A stretch of DNA of 41,415 nucleotides. Source: a virus (Duplodnaviria > Heunggongvirae > Uroviricota > Caudoviricetes). Shown piece after piece: positions 1 to 23,732 of this stretch. The translations under genes and the position numbers were made by a program. Within the stretch, counting starts at the first letter, position 1; every line of letters begins with the position of its first letter. The DNA lies in the IMG/VR virus record IMGVR_UViG_2579778884_000014. One strand, 5' to 3'. A model generated the notes under the pieces. That model was not told where the DNA came from. It saw only the letters and a list, made by a program, of their open reading frames with translations, and did not search any database.

Positions 1-555
1 TCATTTATCTCCGACCGGAAACCTCTTATACAAAGTCGATATGCCAACATCATAGATGATCGCCACCTTCTGGCGAGGAACTCCTGATGCAATTAATCGT
101 CCGGCCTGTGCCCATTGTTCTGGTGTAAGTTTGGGACGTCGTCCACCAATTCGTCCCTGTGCGCGAGCAGCTTCCAGGCCAGCTTTTGTTCGTTCAACAA
201 TCAGTTCTCGTTCCATTTCAGCCAGGGCACCCATCACATGAAAGAAAAAACGCCCCATCGGTGTGCTGGTATCAATAGCATCCGTCAGGCTGCGAAAATT
301 AACGCCACGTTCGCGCAACTCCTCAACCAGAATGACCAGATGCCGCATACTACGCCCCAGCCGATCCAGCTTCCAGACAACCAGAGTGTCACCTGCCGAT
401 AATGTCCTGAGCAGTTTTTTCAGTCCCGGCCTTTCGGACTTTGTACCGCTTATTTTGTCTTCAAAAATCAGCTCGCATCCTGCACAGTTCAGCGCATTAC
501 GTTGTAGATCTGTGTTCTGGTCATTTGTTGACACACGTACATAGCCAATAAGCAT
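1..555 (-). CDS. pin: Serine DNA invertase (Pin/Gin/Hin/Cin family)
   Basis: Minus-strand ORF ending at the window edge; translation from the internal ATG (MLIGYVRVSTNDQNTDLQRNAL...) matches the canonical N-terminus of Pin/Gin-type invertases. ATG at 555 has a GGGAGA Shine-Dalgarno, the upstream ATG at 591 does not. Lies beside an inverted-repeat-bounded tail-fibre segment. Confidence 0.9.
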   Translation of the reverse strand: MLIGYVRVSTNDQNTDLQRNALNCAGCELIFEDKISGTKSERPGLKKLLRTLSAGDTLVVWKLDRLGRSMRHLVILVEELRERGVNFRSLTDAIDTSTPMGRFFFHVMGALAEMERELIVERTKAGLEAARAQGRIGGRRPKLTPEQWAQAGRLIASGVPRQKVAIIYDVGISTLYKRFPVGDK

Positions 556-610
556 GGTAGATCTCCCTGACAAAAGCAGGAATGATGCCATTTGCTCGTT
601 ATTTCTGCAT

Positions 611-4676: not shown

Positions 4677-5029
4677 TACGCCTCCGATGTAACAGTCGTT
4701 ATTCCATAAAGAGTGTCGATTTCAGCGGAAAACATGACACGTCGGGTCGTGGTATCCAGCGTCGTATTGAAAGAGAGGATTGATTTAACGCCCTGCGTTT
4801 CGAGGATGCGCTTACGGATCGCCAGGTTGTAGGTTTCCGGCTTCTGCTTACCGAGTACGGACTGGATCCACGGAGTCCCCTCGGTGGTGTCGAGAAACCA
4901 TTGCCCATACCACAATTCGAATCGCGTTTTTACCGCCTGCGCCACGGCCTCCGGTGAGTTAATCAGCCAGGTGTCATCACCGCTGCCAAAGGTGTAATCG
5001 CCATCGGCGTCTTCACGTCTGTATCGCAT
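4676..5029 (-). CDS. Small baseplate assembly protein (gp25/W-like position)
   Basis: 117 aa ORF between spike and J-like genes with start/stop coupling; call is by synteny only. Confidence 0.45.
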   Translation of the reverse strand: MRYRREDADGDYTFGSGDDTWLINSPEAVAQAVKTRFELWYGQWFLDTTEGTPWIQSVLGKQKPETYNLAIRKRILETQGVKSILSFNTTLDTTTRRVMFSAEIDTLYGITTVTSEA

Positions 5030-5781
5030 CAGTTTACCCCGTCGGTACTGCTTTCACCGCGCTGAACACCACCATGAGTGTGCGTATCATCGATTGGCTT
5101 GCCGTTAGCCTTCACGCCCCCCAAAAACTCAACAGCACCAGTGATTTTTGAAGCCACACCAGAAACCACAGACCCCACCATGCCCCCCATCCAGGTTAAC
5201 AGGCCATGAATGGTTACTTTCTCAGAAAAATCAGCCAGGGGGGCAACCACATCAAGACCACCTGGAGCGACAATTTTAATTTTCCTGGTATCAGGATTAA
5301 GCTCAAAATAGGTGCTGCCGTCATCACTACGCAACTGTGTGGCACTGGTATTAATACCGCTAATCTTCCTTGCCTGCGACTGGGGACCGACAATACAAAA
5401 CGCATCCGATAAATCATGCATTCTGTCATCGACCGACTCCTGTATCCCGCCACTCTGCCACCAGAAATCAATACAACGATCGGCAAAAATCACCAAACAT
5501 TCATCACCGGCTTTAACTGGGAACGTTAGCGTACATCCTCCGCCGCGCGGGAATACCACTGGCACATCCACCAGCAATGGGTAATTTTTGGTAATGCGGT
5601 TGCCGTCATTATCCTTTTCAACCGAACGGATAGCAGGCTGCACAACTGCCGTCACCGCATCAGGATCGAATGACTGAATAATGCCAGGCAAGGCGACACG
5701 GATCTGGTTCTTTGTTGTTTCCCGTTCAGATTTGAATGTTTCGGCAAGGTCGCCGCTGCGGGTCTGGTCAGATACTGCCAT
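5029..5781 (-). CDS. Baseplate central spike (gpV/Mu gp45-like)
   Basis: 250 aa ORF; synteny with the P2 V / Mu gp45 position, glycine-rich C-terminal region. Confidence 0.55.
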   Translation of the reverse strand: MAVSDQTRSGDLAETFKSERETTKNQIRVALPGIIQSFDPDAVTAVVQPAIRSVEKDNDGNRITKNYPLLVDVPVVFPRGGGCTLTFPVKAGDECLVIFADRCIDFWWQSGGIQESVDDRMHDLSDAFCIVGPQSQARKISGINTSATQLRSDDGSTYFELNPDTRKIKIVAPGGLDVVAPLADFSEKVTIHGLLTWMGGMVGSVVSGVASKITGAVEFLGGVKANGKPIDDTHTHGGVQRGESSTDGVN

Positions 5782-5803
5782 TTAGTAGGCTCCAGAAAGC
5801 AAA

Positions 5804-5823
5804 AAACCCGCCGAAGCGGGTTT
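5804..5823 (-). terminator. Intrinsic terminator after the cargo cassette
   Basis: Perfect hairpin AAACCCGC-CGAA-GCGGGTTT; on the minus-strand transcript the stem is followed by UUUUUUGC. Lies between the cargo stop (5841) and the spike gene start (5781). Confidence 0.6.
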
Positions 5824-5840
5824 GATAACGTTAATTTTAT

Positions 5841-6236
5841 TCATGAAACTCTAGCAGACTTTAGCTGTTCCCAGCGCTCAAAATAGAGTTCAGCAGCCTC
5901 GATTGCATCCTGTCCCATCTCTTTCGAAACAGTCACATTCGTCAGATCATAGTCAGCTTCATTTCTAGCATCCCGCCACTGGCGAAGTACGAAAGCTAGG
6001 GATTTCAGTGTATTTGTCGGGTATGGCTCTGATTTGCACTCTGAGGGCGTTGACATATAACCCACAGTATTTTTGTGATGCTCATGGGTAAAATGCGGTA
6101 TGGCAGTAAGTGAGCTAATAGACTCATGTAACATACTGTAATACGCCCTTGAGATAGCGCTTCGAAATCCACTCTCAATATTTTCAGACAGACATAATCG
6201 AGCGGTATCGAGAATCTGATTGCTAGTTACCGACAT
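5841..6236 (-). CDS. Hypothetical protein, cargo gene 2; possible HEPN-like fold
   Basis: 131 aa ORF overlapping the upstream cargo gene by 14 bp; contains ...SRAYYSMLH... (R-x6-H) and a second LRQWRDARNEADYD helix. AT-rich relative to flanking tail genes by eye. Confidence 0.7.
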   Translation of the reverse strand: MSVTSNQILDTARLCLSENIESGFRSAISRAYYSMLHESISSLTAIPHFTHEHHKNTVGYMSTPSECKSEPYPTNTLKSLAFVLRQWRDARNEADYDLTNVTVSKEMGQDAIEAAELYFERWEQLKSARVS

Positions 6237-6996
6237 GGTAGCTCACCCCCGTATGCAACTGACGCGGAGAGGTAAATCTAGCTAACAGGGAACAATCATC
6301 CAGTTTAGATTCAGCGCAGACTCTATCAGCCAAGTCGAAGTTCATTTTGGCAATAGTTTTAGGCTCAAGATTTTTAATATCAACAACATAGCAACCGCTT
6401 CCACTAAGCTGAACGAAACCTGTCGTAGCCTTGTATTCACTTAGCAAGCCCCAGATTATGGATGCTAAGGTCTGGAACTGTTCCTTCGAGCACTGTGTGG
6501 CGCTATAGAAATTATCCATTTCTGCAAGGAGTTCTTCTTTGTGCTTCATAGCATTACTCCTGCCTTCTGATTCAGAAAGAAGCTTAATGTGCTCTTCCAT
6601 ATAAAATTTTAACTGTTCACGCTCGCCGCAACGGTACGCCCAACTGTATGCGTTGTGACTAAAGAGTTTTGTCCGATACTTCTTTGCCAGCGGGACATAG
6701 ACATCCTTGAGTTCATTATAGCTAAATGTATTAATTAAAATGTGATGATAGTGCATTGCCAACGTTACATCGTTTACTTCTAGGCTTATCCTGAGATAAC
6801 GTAACGCGCTTTCAATCTTTCCGGTTATTGCATCCAGATAAGATAGTGCAATGTTGGTAGCAGGCGTTGGAGAGACAGAAAGTTCCTCTCGAATTTTCTT
6901 TTCAGTGAAGGGATCTAAACTTTCCCTATCCAATAGAAGCGCATTGAATTGTTCAATATATTTTTGCGCTTTTTCTAATGGGATGCCTGCCGCCAT
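6223..6996 (-). CDS. Hypothetical protein, cargo gene 1
   Basis: 257 aa ORF with no recognisable virion-protein or enzyme motif; AT-rich by eye; preceded by a promoter-like element and a weak AAGAGA Shine-Dalgarno. Confidence 0.7.
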   Translation of the reverse strand: MAAGIPLEKAQKYIEQFNALLLDRESLDPFTEKKIREELSVSPTPATNIALSYLDAITGKIESALRYLRISLEVNDVTLAMHYHHILINTFSYNELKDVYVPLAKKYRTKLFSHNAYSWAYRCGEREQLKFYMEEHIKLLSESEGRSNAMKHKEELLAEMDNFYSATQCSKEQFQTLASIIWGLLSEYKATTGFVQLSGSGCYVVDIKNLEPKTIAKMNFDLADRVCAESKLDDCSLLARFTSPRQLHTGVSYHVGN

Positions 6997-7025
6997 GGAT
7001 TATTTCTCTTACTAAAGGGATTGTG

Positions 7026-7054
7026 ATTGTGAACTTTGAACAATATCTCGTCAA
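7026..7054 (-). promoter_or_regulatory. Putative sigma70 promoter for the cargo cassette
   Basis: On the minus strand TTGACG - 17 nt - CACAAT about 30 nt upstream of the ATG at 6996, in the 95 bp gap after the 110 aa gene. Imperfect -10; not validated. Confidence 0.3.
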
Positions 7055-7091
7055 CCTTAAAGCGCTCATCTCGGAAGATTGACATCAAACT

Positions 7092-7424
7092 TTAGCGTAA
7101 CGCCTTTTTACACGGGAAAGATCCAATGATTTTCGGCGCGTCCATGCTGTTCTGCAGCAGCTGGACGTTCAGGAAAGCTTTTCCGTTACGTTTCACAAAC
7201 TCAAAGCCGTAATTGTTACCATCACGGGAAGGCATCAGGCCCATGTCCATTTTCATGTTTGAATAGTCACCATCTTTTCCCAGAAATTTTATCTTCTGTG
7301 ATGTGACAGTTTCACCGTTAATAACAGTCATTCCGTCACCGGTCATCGTGTAGTTGCCGCACTGAATTGCAGCCATCGCCGGAGCAGTAACCATCATAAC
7401 TAACGCCAAACATAACCGTTTCAT
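7092..7424 (-). CDS. Small secreted protein of unknown function (signal peptide)
   Basis: 110 aa; N-terminus MKRLCLALVMMVTAPAMAA looks like a Sec signal peptide with an AxA cleavage site; start overlaps the stop of the upstream gene (TAATG). Confidence 0.65.
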   Translation of the reverse strand: MKRLCLALVMMVTAPAMAAIQCGNYTMTGDGMTVINGETVTSQKIKFLGKDGDYSNMKMDMGLMPSRDGNNYGFEFVKRNGKAFLNVQLLQNSMDAPKIIGSFPCKKALR

Positions 7425-8488
7425 TAAAGCCCTCTTTCCCTCGCTGATGAGGAAACAAGATCCGCCGCGCCACGCGCTTCACACATCATATCCATGTACC
7501 ACGCCTGGCCCCTTGTGTCGCCAGTGTACATAATCCCGCGCACAATATAAACGCCATCCGTTGCGATGCTGGCAGGCTGCGATGTGGTGCCGCTGAGCGT
7601 GATATTTCCGTCCGTGTTCTGGTCGGTGATCTGACCACCAGCCATCGCAATATCGTTGTTCGACAACGCGGTACGATAGACGGAAGCCTGATCCAGCTGA
7701 ATGAGCCCGTTAACCCGGATGTTCGGATTAATAAGCGCGCGGACGTTTACGCCGTTACCGATAGTCTGCTGCGGCATTCCAATAAGCCCGGTAGCGCTGT
7801 TGAGCACAATCGCTTCGTGAACATATTCGTTATTCGCCACCATCTGGCGCTGACCGTCCACGAATTGCCATGTTGCGCCACATTGTCCGGCTACGTTATC
7901 CATTAGATGCCGCGTCATGCCAAAGAGTACCCGCCCCCGAGGGAATACAGTAGCAGGCATTTCAGGCGTCAGGCCTTCGGTCGCGCCTTTGGCTTCGAAG
8001 TCTTTCATCAGCGCACGGTTCACATCAGCGACCGTGTAACCGGCAGCCAGCGTCTGTGAGGTTATACTGGTAGCAAAAGCCAGATCAGTATCTGCTGCCT
8101 GAATCAGGACGTAGGTATCAACCGGACTGTCTTTTCCTGTGACCGAGTAGCGAATTTCACCGCTGAAAATCAGTCCGTAGTTGCGGCCATCTCTCTGGCC
8201 CACGTCCGCCGCGTCAACTTCCCGCACGGTCCCTACGTCGCTTGCTGACACCTCCGGCGCGATACCGTCGTAACCGGCAATCAGACGCACTTTCGAAAAC
8301 TCCTGCCCGGTAATTCGGTTCACAGTATCTGCCGAGAGGTTATAAATTTTGATAGTCCCTACCCGGGACGCGCTGCTGATGTTGAACCAGTCGATCGTAA
8401 AGGTGACTTTGAAATCACTTAGCTCAATTCCCTGACCGTTCCCGTCCACAAGCTGCAGCTCGAAATGTCTCATCCAGTTCTGTGACAT
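7424..8488 (-). CDS. Baseplate hub-like tail protein
   Basis: 354 aa ORF downstream of the tape measure block; assignment by synteny with P2 gpD / Mu hub position. Confidence 0.5.
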   Translation of the reverse strand: MSQNWMRHFELQLVDGNGQGIELSDFKVTFTIDWFNISSASRVGTIKIYNLSADTVNRITGQEFSKVRLIAGYDGIAPEVSASDVGTVREVDAADVGQRDGRNYGLIFSGEIRYSVTGKDSPVDTYVLIQAADTDLAFATSITSQTLAAGYTVADVNRALMKDFEAKGATEGLTPEMPATVFPRGRVLFGMTRHLMDNVAGQCGATWQFVDGQRQMVANNEYVHEAIVLNSATGLIGMPQQTIGNGVNVRALINPNIRVNGLIQLDQASVYRTALSNNDIAMAGGQITDQNTDGNITLSGTTSQPASIATDGVYIVRGIMYTGDTRGQAWYMDMMCEARGAADLVSSSARERGL

Positions 8489-8490
8489 GC

Positions 8491-8793
8491 TTACTCCGTT
8501 GATACCAGTAAATGGCTGCGACCGCCCAGGTCAGTTTTTGTGGGGTAATCCTGTGTGTTGTCATCACAGACCACCACCAGCTTAAAACCAAGCCCCATAC
8601 AGGCGTACTGCGCCAGCAGCTCAGCACCAGTGACGAGAGGAATACCGGAGATTACCGGCTCCCCTCTGTCGTTCTGCAGGTCCATAATCCAGTACAGATC
8701 GCGCCATATGATGCTAATCCGCCAGGTGACACCACCCAGGACGATGCTGAACTGCTGGTTGTCCGCTGTCAGCGGAATTTCCTGAATTGTCAT
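8491..8793 (-). CDS. Tail protein of unknown role
   Basis: 100 aa ORF tightly packed within the tail operon. Confidence 0.45.
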   Translation of the reverse strand: MTIQEIPLTADNQQFSIVLGGVTWRISIIWRDLYWIMDLQNDRGEPVISGIPLVTGAELLAQYACMGLGFKLVVVCDDNTQDYPTKTDLGGRSHLLVSTE

Positions 8794-9380
8794 TAGCCGC
8801 CCCCCAGTAATGACGCCACGTTACCCGTGATGCTTTTCAGCAGTGAAGTATCTGGAGGCTTTGTGGTTTTGTTGCCGCTGTTCTGTACCGCCGACGTGCT
8901 GGCCCCTTCCTTCATGTTGGTTTTATCCGCGACGGTAATCTGCTGTGTCCGGGAGATAATGACCTCCCTCAGGGTGAGGACAGCGGACAGGACGTTTTCG
9001 GTTGTCTTGTCCGTCGTCACTTCCAGCGCCCGGATCAACATGTTGCTGTACAGCCGTTTACCGGTTACCACATCGAAGGGGATACGGCTTTCCTGCAGAC
9101 CCAGTAGCTCCTGATACGTCTGCTGAGGACTCAGGCCGAGCAGGCTGGTAGCCGTCAGGTTACTGGCAAAATCCAGCAATGCGCCGCCACCGGCGAAACC
9201 AACCTCCATCACCACTTCTGACGGTTTTTTATAGGCATGATCAGCGACAGCGGCCCCGACCTCTACCGGATGCTCTGTTATTTCAAGCATATCTGTATGC
9301 TTCTCTGAAATAACAACACTGGGAACAATCATTCCTATTTTTCTGCTCTGCTGATGAAAAAGTGTAGAGAGAATATCCAC
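8793..9380 (-). CDS. Tail protein of unknown role
   Basis: 195 aa ORF immediately downstream of the tape measure gene with a 1 nt start/stop overlap. Confidence 0.45.
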   Translation of the reverse strand: MDILSTLFHQQSRKIGMIVPSVVISEKHTDMLEITEHPVEVGAAVADHAYKKPSEVVMEVGFAGGGALLDFASNLTATSLLGLSPQQTYQELLGLQESRIPFDVVTGKRLYSNMLIRALEVTTDKTTENVLSAVLTLREVIISRTQQITVADKTNMKEGASTSAVQNSGNKTTKPPDTSLLKSITGNVASLLGGG

Positions 9381-11365
9381 TAACCCACCCTCACCTGATT
9401 ACTTCGCATGACCTGAGCATTTGCAGACTGTTGCCGACGTGCAACCTCATTACCGACAGCGTGCGGATCTCCGCCACCGTAAATGTGGTAGGTATTTTGC
9501 TGGTTAACCTCTGTCACTTTGCCACTAATTCCCGCCACGGCAGCCTTATTAATCAGCTCTCGAGAATAGATATTTCTTCCATTCTCATGCTGGATAATGC
9601 TGCTCATCAATGCTGACATGGTTTGCGGATCACTCATATTCAGGGCAGCCCGGGGATCCACTCCCAGTCGTTGCGATACAGCCCTGATATACGCTGTTGT
9701 GTTGTTATTATCAGACGCAGGTGCCCAGGTAGAGATAATTTTCTCCACACTGTTTATTCCCCGTCCGGCGTACAGCATTAACTGACGAGCAAGAGCCCGT
9801 AATCCATCAAAGGCAGTTTCAAATCTGGCAAATCGCCCGCCCGGGCGTTCAAGAGAAGCCCCTGCCTGACCAGCAAAATTAAGGTTTCCCGGATTGTTAT
9901 TCCGTTCTCCTCGTTTCGTAGCCTGTGCATATTGTTCCGGCTCAGCACCTGGAATATCTGACTGAATATTTGCGCCTTTTACGGTATGAGGATTACGACC
10001 AAAATCGGTATCAATGCCAAGCCAGCGCAATGAATCTCCAATATTTTGTTTCGTGTAATCCCAGGATGACTTCGCACTGGCACCAATATTTTCGCGATCA
10101 GAGTACAAATACGCAGCATAAGCCATCCAGCCTTTTAACCACGGCGGGACCGGCAAACCTGATATTTTCCCGAAAGCCCCCAGAACCCTGGATACCCAGA
10201 CACCCGCGATGAATGTACCAAGGATTTCCAGTGCATTTTGCCAGCCGCCAACACCATCTTTTAGTTCCAGAAGGTGATCACGAAGCCAGGTGATCGCATC
10301 CTTCGCTTTATCTATTGCCGGTTGCCATTTTTCCCAGTCGATAAGACTGTTACCGCCTTCTTTCCATGTTTTGTAGTCTTCCCACAAGAGACCGAGAGCC
10401 ACGATCAGACCGGTAATCAGCCCTATAGGTGACATCCAGAAAGTAGAGTTAAGTATCCGCATGGCGACAACCAGACCGCCGATAACCTCTATCAGGGTTT
10501 TCGTTTCGGCATCCAGTTTCCCCCACCACTCGATGATATCTCCGACACCATCGACTATCCGAAATGCTACCCGCCCGACTATCTCACCCAGCCAGAGGAT
10601 CCCCTTTATGACCTTTGTGATGGTGACTTCAATTTTGGGAAAATTTTCAATTATCTTTTTGCGCAGGTTATCAATCTGCCCCGCCAGTCCGTCCGCAAGA
10701 TTCGATCCGATTTTGTCCCGCGCCATCCTGGCCATTTCACCGAGCGATTTCAGCGAGGTCATAAACCGGTTTGACGATAAGGCAGCCTGATCGGCATTAA
10801 ATCCGATCGCTTTCACCATTTCTGAATACTGAGCGCTGAACTGCCCCACTCCGCGACGCATAGCCATCAGGGTATTTTCGTCAATGCCCAGCATCTGCGC
10901 ATACTGGTTAGCCCGGTAATACGGCATGCTGCTGAGTTTCTGTCCAACGCCCGTAAAGATAGCAGCCATGTCACGCATGTTACCGCTGGCATCACGGGTC
11001 TGTACGCCCAGGCGATTCAGAAAGCCTTCTGCTCCGGGATTGTTACGAATAAACCGGGAGAGGCTTTCCAGAGAAGATCGCGCAGCGTCCACACTGCCGC
11101 CAACCTGCGAAACCGCATAGCCAATAGACTGAATTCCCTGGACCGTCGCGCCGGTGCGCTGTGACGCCCAGTAAAGATTATCCAGGCCGGAGGCGATCTT
11201 AGCCGTGAAGGCCACCACGGACAGCGCAGCCCCTTCAACAGCCAGCCCCATTTTGATGACATTTGCAGTTGTACCGGCGAGGACAGAACCGAACTTTTTC
11301 GCTCCTGCATCATCCACACTGAAGCCAAGCGAGACGAGGAAATCTTTAATAGTTTCAGCGTTCAT
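9380..11365 (-). CDS. Tail tape measure protein
   Basis: Largest gene of the tail module, alanine/glycine-rich with helical and hydrophobic segments. Track start at 11386 is a TTG; the ATG at 11365 has a strong GGAGAGAGG Shine-Dalgarno. Confidence 0.8.
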   Translation of the reverse strand: MNAETIKDFLVSLGFSVDDAGAKKFGSVLAGTTANVIKMGLAVEGAALSVVAFTAKIASGLDNLYWASQRTGATVQGIQSIGYAVSQVGGSVDAARSSLESLSRFIRNNPGAEGFLNRLGVQTRDASGNMRDMAAIFTGVGQKLSSMPYYRANQYAQMLGIDENTLMAMRRGVGQFSAQYSEMVKAIGFNADQAALSSNRFMTSLKSLGEMARMARDKIGSNLADGLAGQIDNLRKKIIENFPKIEVTITKVIKGILWLGEIVGRVAFRIVDGVGDIIEWWGKLDAETKTLIEVIGGLVVAMRILNSTFWMSPIGLITGLIVALGLLWEDYKTWKEGGNSLIDWEKWQPAIDKAKDAITWLRDHLLELKDGVGGWQNALEILGTFIAGVWVSRVLGAFGKISGLPVPPWLKGWMAYAAYLYSDRENIGASAKSSWDYTKQNIGDSLRWLGIDTDFGRNPHTVKGANIQSDIPGAEPEQYAQATKRGERNNNPGNLNFAGQAGASLERPGGRFARFETAFDGLRALARQLMLYAGRGINSVEKIISTWAPASDNNNTTAYIRAVSQRLGVDPRAALNMSDPQTMSALMSSIIQHENGRNIYSRELINKAAVAGISGKVTEVNQQNTYHIYGGGDPHAVGNEVARRQQSANAQVMRSNQVRVG

Positions 11366-11995
11366 TATCCTCTCTCCATTTCTCAATGCGTCGCTGGTTA
11401 TCCGCTTTTACCGCCAGATGGTCATTCAAGAGAGCAATGTCATACAAATCGACAGAGCCATCTTTAAGTGCTGTATAAGGAATTAACCCGGCGTCAACCG
11501 GATTGAGAAGGTAGGACAGCCCGTCCGGCAGGCTGTTAAACGTCAGCCCTGTTGCAGGCTCTGCGTCGTGCTGGTAAGGGGTGTAGGCAAAAAATTTCCC
11601 AGCGAATCGGCGACCACCCGCGCCACCAGCTGCAGCATGACCAGCAAGTCAATATCATCAAACATCAGTTCGCCCTGGGTAAATACCGGCACCCATCCGT
11701 CCATATGACGCCGCGATACCACCGCAAGACAGGGATGAATAATCGCATCGGTGTCATCTTCGGTCAGGGAAGACAGTTCCTCAGCGATACGCGGGAGCAT
11801 GGTTTCAAACACCGGTTTTAACTGTTCGAATTTCACGGTGTCGATTTTGCCGTCAGCAGGCAAACGGGAGCGAATACTCCCGAAATCTGACATCATTCCT
11901 GCCAACACCGGCAGAAGTTTGCGGGTCACTTTCAGTTGGTCAAAAACGCTGAGTTTTGCCACGCGATATTTCACGCCTTTAATTTCGAATTCCAT
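11355..11995 (-). CDS. Tail assembly chaperone, predicted -1 frameshift fusion product (GT-like)
   Basis: Slippery heptamer T_TTT_TTG (plus coordinates 11588..11594) about 15 codons before the chaperone stop; the -1 frame is open from there to a TGA at 11355..11357, just inside the tape measure start. Confidence 0.5.
11543..11995 (-). CDS. Tail assembly chaperone (G-like, unshifted product)
   Basis: 150 aa ORF between the tail tube and tape measure genes, the conserved chaperone position. Confidence 0.65.
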   Translation of the reverse strand: MEFEIKGVKYRVAKLSVFDQLKVTRKLLPVLAGMMSDFGSIRSRLPADGKIDTVKFEQLKPVFETMLPRIAEELSSLTEDDTDAIIHPCLAVVSRRHMDGWVPVFTQGELMFDDIDLLVMLQLVARVVADSLGNFLPTPLTSTTQSLQQG

Positions 11996-22747: not shown

Positions 22748-23272
22748 TTACCGGGACTGTTCTATTTGTCGGACACCAGCCAACTGGTTATTCGCCTTCT
22801 CGATGGCTGCCAACAGTGGGTTAATCCACAGAACAGCCTGGCAATATGTCAACGTTCTGGGGGTAGTGGCACGATCACCGGCTGAGTCAATGTCCCCGGA
22901 ATCGGCGTGCAATGCGCTGGCGCGTAAACGGTTCGCGTAGTTGAGCAACCCGACAGCAATATCAACAGGAACAGGGAAATCACAGTTCTTTTCACGGAGC
23001 AGAACCTCACGGTATTTGATGACTGTCTTCTCGTGACCGATGTCGACCAGAGAATTTAATCGGCTTGCGTTTTCTGCTATCTGGTTAAAACGATTGAAGT
23101 TTAATGCCTGATTAGCTATCACTTTCCCTTGATATTCAGCTTCACCTTCCGCTTTATCAGCCCGCAACTTTTCTGCCTGATACTTGCTGTGGTAATGGTT
23201 TGCAGACCAGACGAGCGCCCCAAAGGCAGAGAAGAAAAATGCCGCGATGACAATCTTATAAGTCAGCTTCAT
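22748..23272 (-). CDS. Rz-like inner-membrane spanin
   Basis: 174 aa with N-terminal membrane anchor; ...LVWSANHYHSKYQAEKLRAD... resembles the lambda Rz N-terminus (...WAVNHYRD...); overlaps the endolysin 3-prime end. Confidence 0.6.
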   Translation of the reverse strand: MKLTYKIVIAAFFFSAFGALVWSANHYHSKYQAEKLRADKAEGEAEYQGKVIANQALNFNRFNQIAENASRLNSLVDIGHEKTVIKYREVLLREKNCDFPVPVDIAVGLLNYANRLRASALHADSGDIDSAGDRATTPRTLTYCQAVLWINPLLAAIEKANNQLAGVRQIEQSR

Positions 23273-23732
23273 TTACCACCCCACCAGCATCTTTAAACCT
23301 GGAAATCAGGTCACCGATTTTATGTTCATACTGACCGTAACCTGCACCAGGTAACGACGCCCAGATATTGCTGCAACGGTCGATTGCCTGACGAATATCG
23401 CCACGGTCAATCATCGGTAAAGCGCCACGCTCTTTAATCTGCTGCAGCGCCACAGCGTCCTGACTTTCTGGCGAAAAATCTTTCAGGCCAAGCTGCTTAC
23501 GGTAGGCATCCCACCAGCGTGAAAGAAGCTGATACCGGCCTGCGGCTGTTGATTTAAGCTTCGGGTTTAGCGTGACAAGTTTGCGAGGGTGATCGGAGTA
23601 ATCAGTGAACAACTCACCTCCGACAATAACGTCATAACCGTGATTACGTGTCGGTTGTCGCCCGTTATCCGTTCCTTCTGACCATGCCACCATATCCAGG
23701 AAAGCTTTACGTTGGGAATTTAGTGTCTGCAT
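23256..23732 (-). CDS. R: Endolysin, lambda R-type lytic transglycosylase
   Basis: 158 aa; ...NSQRKAFLDMVAWSEGTDNGRQPTRNHGYDVIVGGELFTDYSDHPRKLVTLNPKLKSTAAGRYQLLSRWWDAYRKQLGLKDF... is near-identical over long stretches to lambda R as I recall it. Confidence 0.9.
   Translation of the reverse strand: MQTLNSQRKAFLDMVAWSEGTDNGRQPTRNHGYDVIVGGELFTDYSDHPRKLVTLNPKLKSTAAGRYQLLSRWWDAYRKQLGLKDFSPESQDAVALQQIKERGALPMIDRGDIRQAIDRCSNIWASLPGAGYGQYEHKIGDLISRFKDAGGVVNEADL

Follow-up and report, generated by a model that had tools for sequence, protein, structure and literature searches.

In the tail module of a temperate myovirus prophage, the gene directly behind the baseplate hub gene very probably encodes a protein that is both exported and accessory, i.e., dispensable for the tail. 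We here call this protein X; its coding sequence (7092..7424, minus strand) belongs to the phrog_3443 family, and "the window" refers to the whole 41,415-nt stretch of DNA that was analyzed. We proposed, tentatively and as a statement that we hold to be somewhat short of probable, that X is an exported accessory barrel acting in the envelope against related phages. The initial annotation had suggested a periplasmic accessory factor rather than a structural protein, and both parts of this suggestion received indirect support: predicted export from a conserved signal, two invariant cysteines, and lipoprotein-fused variants, and accessory status from phages that lack X, the GC content, mosaic alleles, and copies of the gene outside phages.

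The X Gene and Its Coupling to the Baseplate Hub Gene

The open reading frame that had been reported at 7092-7424, with the strand left unsaid, runs on the minus strand from 7424 down to 7092, and its 110-aa translation begins MKRLCLALVMMVTAPAMAAIQCGNY. We concluded that it is a real gene and not a chance ORF, because homologues were recovered in 410 protein clusters (E <= 1e-3; 5.8-billion-protein collection) and X matches phrog_3443 at E = 2.3e-52, with residues 3-107 aligned to profile positions 6-112 of 115. The stop codon of the hub gene (TAA) and the start codon of X (ATG) have one base in common (TAATG, 7426-7422), an overlap that had already been pointed out initially, and a Shine-Dalgarno sequence, GAGGG (7434-7430), is located 5 nt 5' of the X ATG; these coupling signals together span 7422..7434 on the minus strand. 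It is strongly indicated that X is translated in tandem with the baseplate hub, and from this translational coupling we infer that X is probably co-expressed with the tail genes.

Consensus scans detected no promoter-like site directly upstream of X and two such sites in the 95-nt spacer between X and the neighboring cargo genes, and no terminator was found after X. A promoter-like TTGACG-17-CACAAT element (7026..7054, minus strand), a consensus match only, could drive the cargo and not X, and a terminator-like hairpin with a T-run (5804..5823, minus strand) follows the cargo and precedes the spike gene. Folding of the spacer between X and the cargo revealed no significant structure (z = 0.59), and an Rfam search of the whole window returned no matches. 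From this arrangement, X looks like part of the late tail transcript and the cargo like a self-contained moron. Expression of X in the lysogen, which classical exclusion would need, is not indicated because X has neither a promoter nor a terminator of its own, and X may be produced only late in the lytic cycle. This placement in the late transcript weakens, without excluding, a role for X in the lysogen.

Predicted Export and Distribution of the X Family

The N-terminus of X shows the classic Sec/SPase-I pattern, consisting of MKRLCLALVMMVTAPAMA followed by AIQC. The signal-peptide coding part, assigned heuristically with the predicted SPase I site AMA/AIQC, occupies 7371..7424 on the minus strand. 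K2 and R3 form the n-region, the 13-residue hydrophobic core gives the h-region LCLALVMMVTAPA, and A-M-A stands at -3/-1 before A19; inspection of the N-terminus of the window's X found no lipobox (L-x-x-C). All the sequence features of a Sec/SPase-I substrate (charged n-region, h-region, small residues at -3/-1, no lipobox) were therefore present in X. Judged from the sequence, cleavage is likely after A18; the Sec-type signal peptide claimed in the initial annotation fits this pattern, but the string quoted there was one residue too long. The predicted cleaved form comprises 92 aa, with a computed mass of 10.2 kDa and a pI of 9.2.

To score the signal across the family we used a heuristic that combined a positive n-region, a 9-mer with a Kyte-Doolittle value of at least 1.8, and an AxA-like site at most 8 residues from the conserved cysteine. 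This pattern was found in 130 of the 139 full-length X homologues, and most of the nine exceptions were due to the wrong cysteine being picked by the pattern or to truncated starts. In an alignment of 26 sequences, the signal sequences were barely alignable and the signal architecture was kept in each of them, and two cysteines, Cys22 and Cys105, were invariant. Because the architecture is kept across a divergent family together with the invariant cysteines, the simplest reading is that export with a disulfide pair is under selection.

All 410 homologue clusters came from Enterobacterales, with a range from Escherichia to Photorhabdus and Yersinia, and were labeled "hypothetical" or "secreted protein." A deep HMM search of 1.84 billion representatives recovered only 66 X clusters at E <= 1e-3, none of them annotated. 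X-like DNA occurs in 318 of 5426 complete E. coli genomes (~6%), and the gene is also found in many genomes of Klebsiella, Salmonella, Enterobacter, Yersinia, and Photorhabdus. Proteins 96-99% identical to X, among them that of locus L005 (96%), carry the RefSeq name "STY1065/STY2022 family phage-derived protein" and are encoded at the same position after the hub gene. Despite this RefSeq family name, the NCBIfam release 20 HMM library gave no match to X, and neither did Pfam (E <= 0.01) or PADLOC; ten distant family members likewise matched nothing in Pfam or NCBIfam, and a homologue search with the chromosomal member P0144 returned a single Mixta relative only. PDB sequences yielded nothing against the family profile at E <= 10. 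A full-text literature search on STY1065 and STY2022 returned nothing relevant, a general search on periplasmic exclusion proteins returned nothing on the X family, and a search on Klebsiella phage Mulock returned a genome announcement only; the Salmonella phage SEN34 paper holds no proteomics or exclusion data, and a search of the literature for virion proteomics of any X-carrying phage found none. The homology search, which had been suggested as a check on the initial annotation, thus placed X in a family that is catalogued in phrog_3443 but uncharacterized, being without a Pfam entry, a structure, or a literature.

Conserved Residues and Predicted Fold

Beyond the two cysteines, the 26-sequence alignment showed invariant residues at N36, T41-S42-Q43-K44, M64-P65, D68-G69, Y72-G73-F74, N86-V87, D95, P97, and G101. 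Distant members keep a signal peptide and the pattern QCGPF..ING..P.TQK..GKA.LNV..YDC, which includes both cysteines. Two longer variants, P0136 and P0156 (292 and 265 aa), are lipoproteins with the lipobox LSGC, in which the X domain is C-terminal, and they too are encoded directly after the hub. Among 57 nonredundant members, conservation was highest in the segment 34-47 and in the loops 64-70 and 91-97, and the most variable parts were the loops 29-33 and 48-56 and the signal peptide. The nearly invariant loops read INGExVTSQK, MPxRDGNxYGF, and QNSMDAP.

An AlphaFold2 model built with the family alignment (pLDDT 80, pTM 0.68) consists of an N-terminal helix, corresponding to the signal peptide, and seven predicted strands, which we interpret as a small barrel of the up-and-down kind. 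Structures placed alongside this model were those of avidins, Cap15, Tp0751, designed barrels, PliC (two entries), Brucella PhiA, a T6SS immunity protein, and GerS, and a Foldseek comparison of X with the PDB and with viral structures (BFVD) gave nothing at E <= 0.001. The predicted fold class, a small beta-barrel, is clear, but the structure search proposed initially identified no specific relative. From the strand order of the model, and not from its coordinates, we infer that the conserved and the variable loops would lie at opposite ends of the barrel.

The Tail Module and the Variable Slot behind X

The window represents a temperate myovirus prophage, in which positions 5700-8600 are 100% identical to the chromosome of E. 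coli BH100N, and the X lineage consists of temperate myoviruses of Enterobacterales related to Salmonella phage SEN34 and Klebsiella phage Mulock. On the minus strand, the tail genes are ordered sheath, tube, tail assembly chaperone, tape measure (9380-11386), Dit-like protein (8793-9380), Pam3_gp18-type plug (8491-8793), baseplate hub (7424..8488), X, two cargo genes, and spike (5029..5781), followed in the same direction by sheath initiator, baseplate J, a DUF2612 protein, and the fibre; the sheath and tube were assigned from their place in this order and from Pfam labels in related loci. The hub matches phrog_196 ("baseplate hub," E = 4.6e-89) and, below the Pfam cut-off, PF22759 (E217_GP41, E = 3.4e-5). 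The spike, with a gpV-like N domain and an Apex motif, is the right-hand boundary of a variable slot. The fibre module of this phage is accompanied by an invertase, which may point to LPS-type receptors. Elsewhere in the window, the lysis cassette looks complete without X, with a holin recognized by Pfam and the adjacent ORFs taken as endolysin and Rz by inspection only.

The slot holds a cargo cassette (5841..6996, minus strand) that encodes a 257-aa phrog_17809 protein and an overlapping 131-aa, weakly HEPN-like phrog_5176 protein. A foreign cassette immediately past X had been recognized before our analysis; it extends from 6996 to 5841, downstream of X in transcription, and in close relatives it is swapped for other genes. 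The stretch between X and the spike in relatives ranges from 0 to ~4 kb and contains unrelated genes (DUF4282, a YafO toxin pair, an HMG-box protein, DUF2335, and DUF4236), so that X marks the left edge of a cargo hotspot with toxin-antitoxin and defence-like genes. The cargo junction falls within the last codons of X, and the X C-terminus reads KKALR, KKVSSK, or KKIVD depending on the cargo.

The position of X is far more constant than that of the neighboring cargo. In one-genome-per-species scans, X directly adjoins a detected hub gene in 32 of 36 loci; the remaining four comprise two loci without a hub match (L026 and L044), one cut by a contig end (L027), and one with ~570 nt between hub and X (L038). 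X directly follows the hub in all phage and E. coli records that we opened with the hub region in view, and in two loci (L036 and L046) it is present after the hub without any cargo before the spike. Another branch (L053, L054, and L055) has the order plug, X, hub, spike. The sparsely annotated 106-kb record PQ569648, in which the hub match lies 40 kb away, was uninformative as to the context of X. X is the edge marker of the cargo slot and not a member of the cargo.

Probable Accessory Status of X

X is missing from several phages that share its tail module, a comparison that had been proposed as a check on the initial annotation. Hafnia phage yong1 has a hub 77% identical to that of the window and lacks X; Bordetella IFTN9, Acinetobacter Ab105-1phi, and Ralstonia PY059YO380 have the same tail gene order, with the hub gene overlapping the spike gene, and lack it as well. 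X is thus not present wherever the baseplate module is present, as a structural protein would be. The GC content of X (45.3%) is closer to that of the cargo (42-44%) than to that of the tail genes (50-54%; hub 54.4%, plug 53.5%, spike 50.5%). A few distant X homologues are stand-alone chromosomal genes outside phages: one lies between clsA/yciY and yciI in a Mixta-like genome, one beside the gene for a LysR-type regulator near tsx, and one in an island with a lipoprotein gene and an Hcp gene.

These comparisons bear on the alternative that X is a tail assembly factor or minor virion protein that works with the hub, in which case the N-terminus would be an anchor or interaction helix, or X would join the particles after lysis. 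The strict adjacency of X to the hub gene, which it may follow or precede, the translational coupling, and a hub C-terminal tail that co-varies with the X type (see below) are in keeping with such a role. We nevertheless consider it very unlikely, since phages with the same baseplate set do without X, including the one whose hub is 77% identical; the signal features and the AxA site are kept though the sequence diverges; both cysteines are invariant, and lipoprotein fusions occur among the variants; and X has copies outside phages and a GC content unlike that of tail genes.

The slot between hub and spike is also occupied in the lineage of phage E217. The paper on the solved E217 virion structure names gp41 (hub) and gp43 (tip) and never names gp42, the product of the ORF between hub and spike. 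Because gp42 goes unmentioned, this slot can hold a gene absent from the reported virion structure in that lineage too. As a candidate counterpart of X, gp42 was rejected: it has 177 aa and no signal peptide, and is unrelated to X.

Mosaic Variation of X Alleles

X alleles vary in a setting that is otherwise well conserved. In eight loci (L006, L009, L011, L020, L022, L025, L035, and L037), the hub is 95-97% identical to that of the window where X is only 54-65% identical. Sliding DNA identity located the boundaries of this variation: close relatives agree at 93-100% over the final ~100 nt of the hub gene, identity falls sharply ~30 nt before the X start and amounts to 23-77% over the 5' two-thirds of X, and past the X stop it is at chance level. 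Within the 3' part of X lies a conserved DNA island (7131..7161, minus strand; X nt ~265-295) that encodes LLQNSMDAPK; its identity amounts to 87-100% in most loci of the comparison and to 70-80% in three. Judged from these identity profiles, the island is likely a crossover point for the exchange of alleles and cargo. The full window-type allele (at least 80% covered) was found in only 67 of the 318 E. coli genomes with X DNA, the others matching the 3' part only. Several discrete N-terminal types of X were distinguished, and they are scattered across genera.

The flanking islands, i.e., the end of the hub gene and X nt ~265-295, and the cargo junction in the last X codons would also be expected if X had little present function and persisted as a homology anchor, provided by its 3' end and the hub end, for cargo exchange. 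This explanation is, in our judgment, the least credible of those that we considered. Many residues of X are under strong purifying selection at the protein level across homologues of 35-99% identity, about 130 of 139 members are intact ORFs with a functional-looking signal peptide, and X is kept in the two loci without cargo.

The last ~12 residues of the hub change in step with the X type, and this holds even when hubs with overall identities of 63% and 97% are compared. This link may be simple linkage of touching segments or a functional match. No co-variation of the X type with the spike or the fibre was seen. No phage-encoded partner is singled out, because the X type tracks neither the lytic domain of the tape measure (see below) nor the spike nor the fibre.

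A host partner is at the center of another alternative, in which X is a late lytic helper acting on the host envelope, where it might bind an outer-membrane or periplasmic component against the loss of progeny on debris, tune lysis, or shield virions from periplasmic proteases; such a helper would leave the lysogen unprotected. The coupling to a late tail gene without a promoter or terminator of its own agrees with this explanation, as do the basic character of mature X (pI 9.2) and its conserved face, which would fit a host target conserved across Enterobacterales. A conserved host target, however, leaves the frequent swapping of the other end of X unexplained, and the lysis cassette appears to need no such addition; we regard a late helper as unlikely. 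Conflict interfaces typically show frequent exchange of alleles against a conserved background, and because X alleles are exchanged in this way, interference with related phages is favored.

Comparison with Inhibitors of Peptidoglycan Hydrolases

The C-terminus of the tape measure matches the endolysin of PDB 7q47 (E = 9e-14) and also gp29 of 9vvp, and relatives carry an SLT domain in place of the Pae87-like lytic domain of the window's tape measure. The presence of this tail lysin, together with the predicted structure of X, a small beta-barrel held by a disulfide and bearing its conserved loops at one end, is consistent with X being a periplasmic inhibitor of peptidoglycan hydrolases, similar to PliC/MliC or Spackle, whose loops would block the catalytic site of a muramidase or transglycosylase. 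Candidate targets would be the lytic domain at the C-terminus of a tape measure that enters from outside, the endolysin, and lytic transglycosylases of the host. Two lines of evidence led us to rate this explanation as improbable: X lacks the hallmarks of the known barrel inhibitors, and a single X allele type can be paired with either lytic domain, just as one lytic type is found with several X types.

MliC and PliC are eight-stranded periplasmic beta-barrel lysozyme inhibitors. X has no Pfam match to this family (PF09864), its alignment lacks the MliC/PliC signature motifs, and the likeness of PliC/MliC to X is no better than that of avidins or designed barrels. Spackle (Sp) of phage T4 inhibits the tail lysozyme gp5 in the periplasm and thereby confers superinfection exclusion. 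Like X, it is small, phage-encoded, and provided with a cleavable signal peptide (predicted in the case of X), and both phages have a tail-borne peptidoglycan hydrolase; however, Spackle is helical whereas X is predicted to be all-beta, and the two share no sequence similarity.

With regard to the lytic domains, X type A occurs both with the Pae87-like domain (the window, L003, L005, and L013) and with SLT (L012, L014, and L015), and X type D likewise occurs with both kinds (L006 and L009). This argues against a Spackle-like inhibitor specific to the phage's own tail lysin, as the X type fails to follow the lysin type. Because allele types and lytic types mix in this way, the nearly invariant face of X cannot be specific for the lysin of its own phage.

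Proposed Role of X in the Envelope

We favor an exclusion function of X over a hydrolase inhibitor, a late helper, a virion protein, or a recombination anchor, and the remaining probability lies with something outside these readings. In the proposed mechanism, X would be translated in tandem with the hub, exported via Sec, and cut by signal peptidase I after A18, and it would fold in the periplasm into an up-and-down beta-barrel of ~10 kDa with a Cys22-Cys105 disulfide. One end of this barrel would be nearly invariant, and the other end would, together with the signal peptide, be hypervariable and swapped between otherwise near-identical phages. The invariant loop face may bind a conserved partner in the envelope, and X would thereby disturb infection by related phages at its periplasmic stage, with superinfection exclusion, or else a protected host cell or protected progeny, as the outcome. 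This interference with a periplasmic infection stage is, taken as a mechanism, a possibility that we put forward with considerable doubt. For the two functions named initially, superinfection exclusion and inhibition of a host envelope enzyme, neither the homology searches nor the fold comparisons pointed to a target.

The concept of envelope proteins encoded among tail genes is known, and the X family has no detectable relation to the named examples. Cor (phi80/N15) and Llp (T5) are exclusion lipoproteins and, together with Lom and Bor of lambda, are envelope proteins encoded within or beside tail genes. X resembles these four as a predicted envelope-targeted product of an accessory gene in the tail region that is probably dispensable for virion structure, and some X variants are lipoproteins; the X of the window has no lipobox, no homology to these proteins, and no promoter or terminator of its own. 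HK97 gp15 is reportedly a moron in the tail operon whose product blocks DNA entry, an inner-membrane protein expressed from the prophage. Like X, it is a small accessory gene within a tail operon, with DNA entry as the proposed point of action in either case; in contrast to the inner-membrane, prophage-expressed gp15, X is predicted to be a soluble protein of the periplasm, and its gene is coupled to a late one. A classical moron has its own promoter and terminator and a deviant GC content; the GC content of X deviates, yet promoter and terminator are missing.

If X blocks entry, it would represent a new protein family among the few known periplasmic exclusion mechanisms, and it would help to predict cross-resistance among temperate myoviruses of clinical Enterobacterales. 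If X instead serves as a helper in lysis or in the protection of progeny, it would be a modest addition to phage biology. X is common in clinical Enterobacterales, and nothing mechanistically surprising has been seen so far.

A more specific form of exclusion was also considered, in which X is a type-specific "tube-tip cap": periplasmic X would bind the hub of an incoming tail tube of the same lineage and block the release of the tape measure and DNA. The invariant loops would dock on the conserved hub, the hypervariable end of X would match the variable C-terminal tail of the hub, and the signal peptide would prevent X from meeting the hub while the phage's own tails are being assembled. We consider this specific form quite unlikely.

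Predicted exported proteins encoded beside the hub were observed in two more distantly related phages. In EKP1, the hub-adjacent slot contains an unannotated Thr-rich ORF and a gene for a 107-aa protein after the hub, both products being signal-peptide proteins unrelated to X, and in Providencia phage PSTCR3 an unrelated 157-aa signal-peptide protein is encoded between plug and hub. An hhalign comparison of the X family with the exported proteins of EKP1 and PSTCR3 revealed no homology beyond the signal peptide. The two cases are suggestive of an exported protein encoded beside the hub as a recurrent solution, and if X does cap the tube tip, such proteins would point to a general hub-directed exclusion strategy.

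Cargo hotspot between X and the spike gene

The interval between the gene for X, the very probably exported 110-aa protein encoded directly after the baseplate hub gene, and the spike gene proved to be a cargo hotspot, ranging in length from 0 to approximately 4 kb across the window and related loci L001-L047. In the window, this X-to-spike interval (5782-7091, minus strand) carries two overlapping genes, with a promoter-like site on one side (7054-7026) and a terminator-like hairpin on the other (5823-5804). The first encodes a 257-aa protein, for which phrog_17809 was the sole match found; the second encodes a 131-aa protein with a weak match to HEPN (PDB 9xbd, E=0.002). PADLOC found no known defence system. 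In relatives, the same slot was occupied by DUF4282, a YafO toxin pair, HMG-box, DUF2335, or DUF4236, or was empty.

Covariation of the hub C-terminus with X

The hub C-terminal tail, comprising the last ~12 codons (7427-7465, minus strand), was variable, and it changed together with the X allele type (the discrete X sequence variants exchanged between near-identical phages), even between hubs that were very different overall. This co-change may reflect either linkage or a functional match. Directly upstream of the tail codons, ~100 nt of the hub gene encode YTGDTRGQAWYMDMMCEARGA; identity over these nucleotides was 93-100% in most close relatives, with a minimum of 83% in one 30-nt bin, and was lower in the Salmonella phage relative SEN34.

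Signal-peptide proteins and X homologues in other contexts

Signal-peptide proteins unrelated to X also adjoin the hub gene in two more distant relatives, the Elizabethkingia phage EKP1 (L059, 3527-4122), where one such protein, Thr-rich and ~80 aa long, is missing from the annotation, and the Providencia phage PSTCR3 (L060, 1963-2436). In addition, two X homologues, P0136 and P0156 (292 and 265 aa), are lipoprotein variants, fusions of the X domain to an unknown N-terminal domain; the P0136 gene, located in L048-L050 (L048, 8001-8879), lies directly 3' of the hub gene. Distant X homologues without a surrounding prophage tail module were found in L057 (6001-6357), L056 (6001-6339), and L052 (6001-6342). 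One of these non-tail homologues lies in a Mixta-like chromosome between clsA/yciY and yciI, one adjoins a LysR regulator gene with tsx nearby, and one resides in a tRNA-linked island with an orphan Hcp gene and a lipoprotein gene.

Flavobacteriia hosts are assigned to two Enterobacterales-type prophage or phage sequences, L015 (contig labelled Chryseobacterium sp. 18061) and EKP1. In L015, the hub shares 93% identity, and X 88%, with its counterpart in the E. coli window, and the attribution may reflect contamination or a mislabelled host.

Tail lysin, lysis, and fibre genes

Over its C-terminal ~190 aa (9380-9970, minus strand), the tape measure protein matched an endolysin (PDB 7q47, E=9e-14), with gp29 of 9vvp as a second homologue; Pfam found nothing in this region. 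Because close relatives carry an SLT transglycosylase domain at the equivalent position rather than the endolysin-like domain of the window, we concluded that the tail lysin domain is exchanged among otherwise similar phages. Between the holin (PF05106) and Rz-like ORFs, the ORF at 23256-23732 (minus strand) had no Pfam match at E<=0.001, and on our inspection it looks like a lambda R-type endolysin. A serine-recombinase-like ORF (1-591, minus strand) adjoins short ORFs of fibre-tip and chaperone-like type that run in opposite directions (582-1672 on the plus strand, 1644-2084 on the minus strand); judged by translations alone, 1-2084 resembles a Mu Gin/G-type invertible segment for host range.
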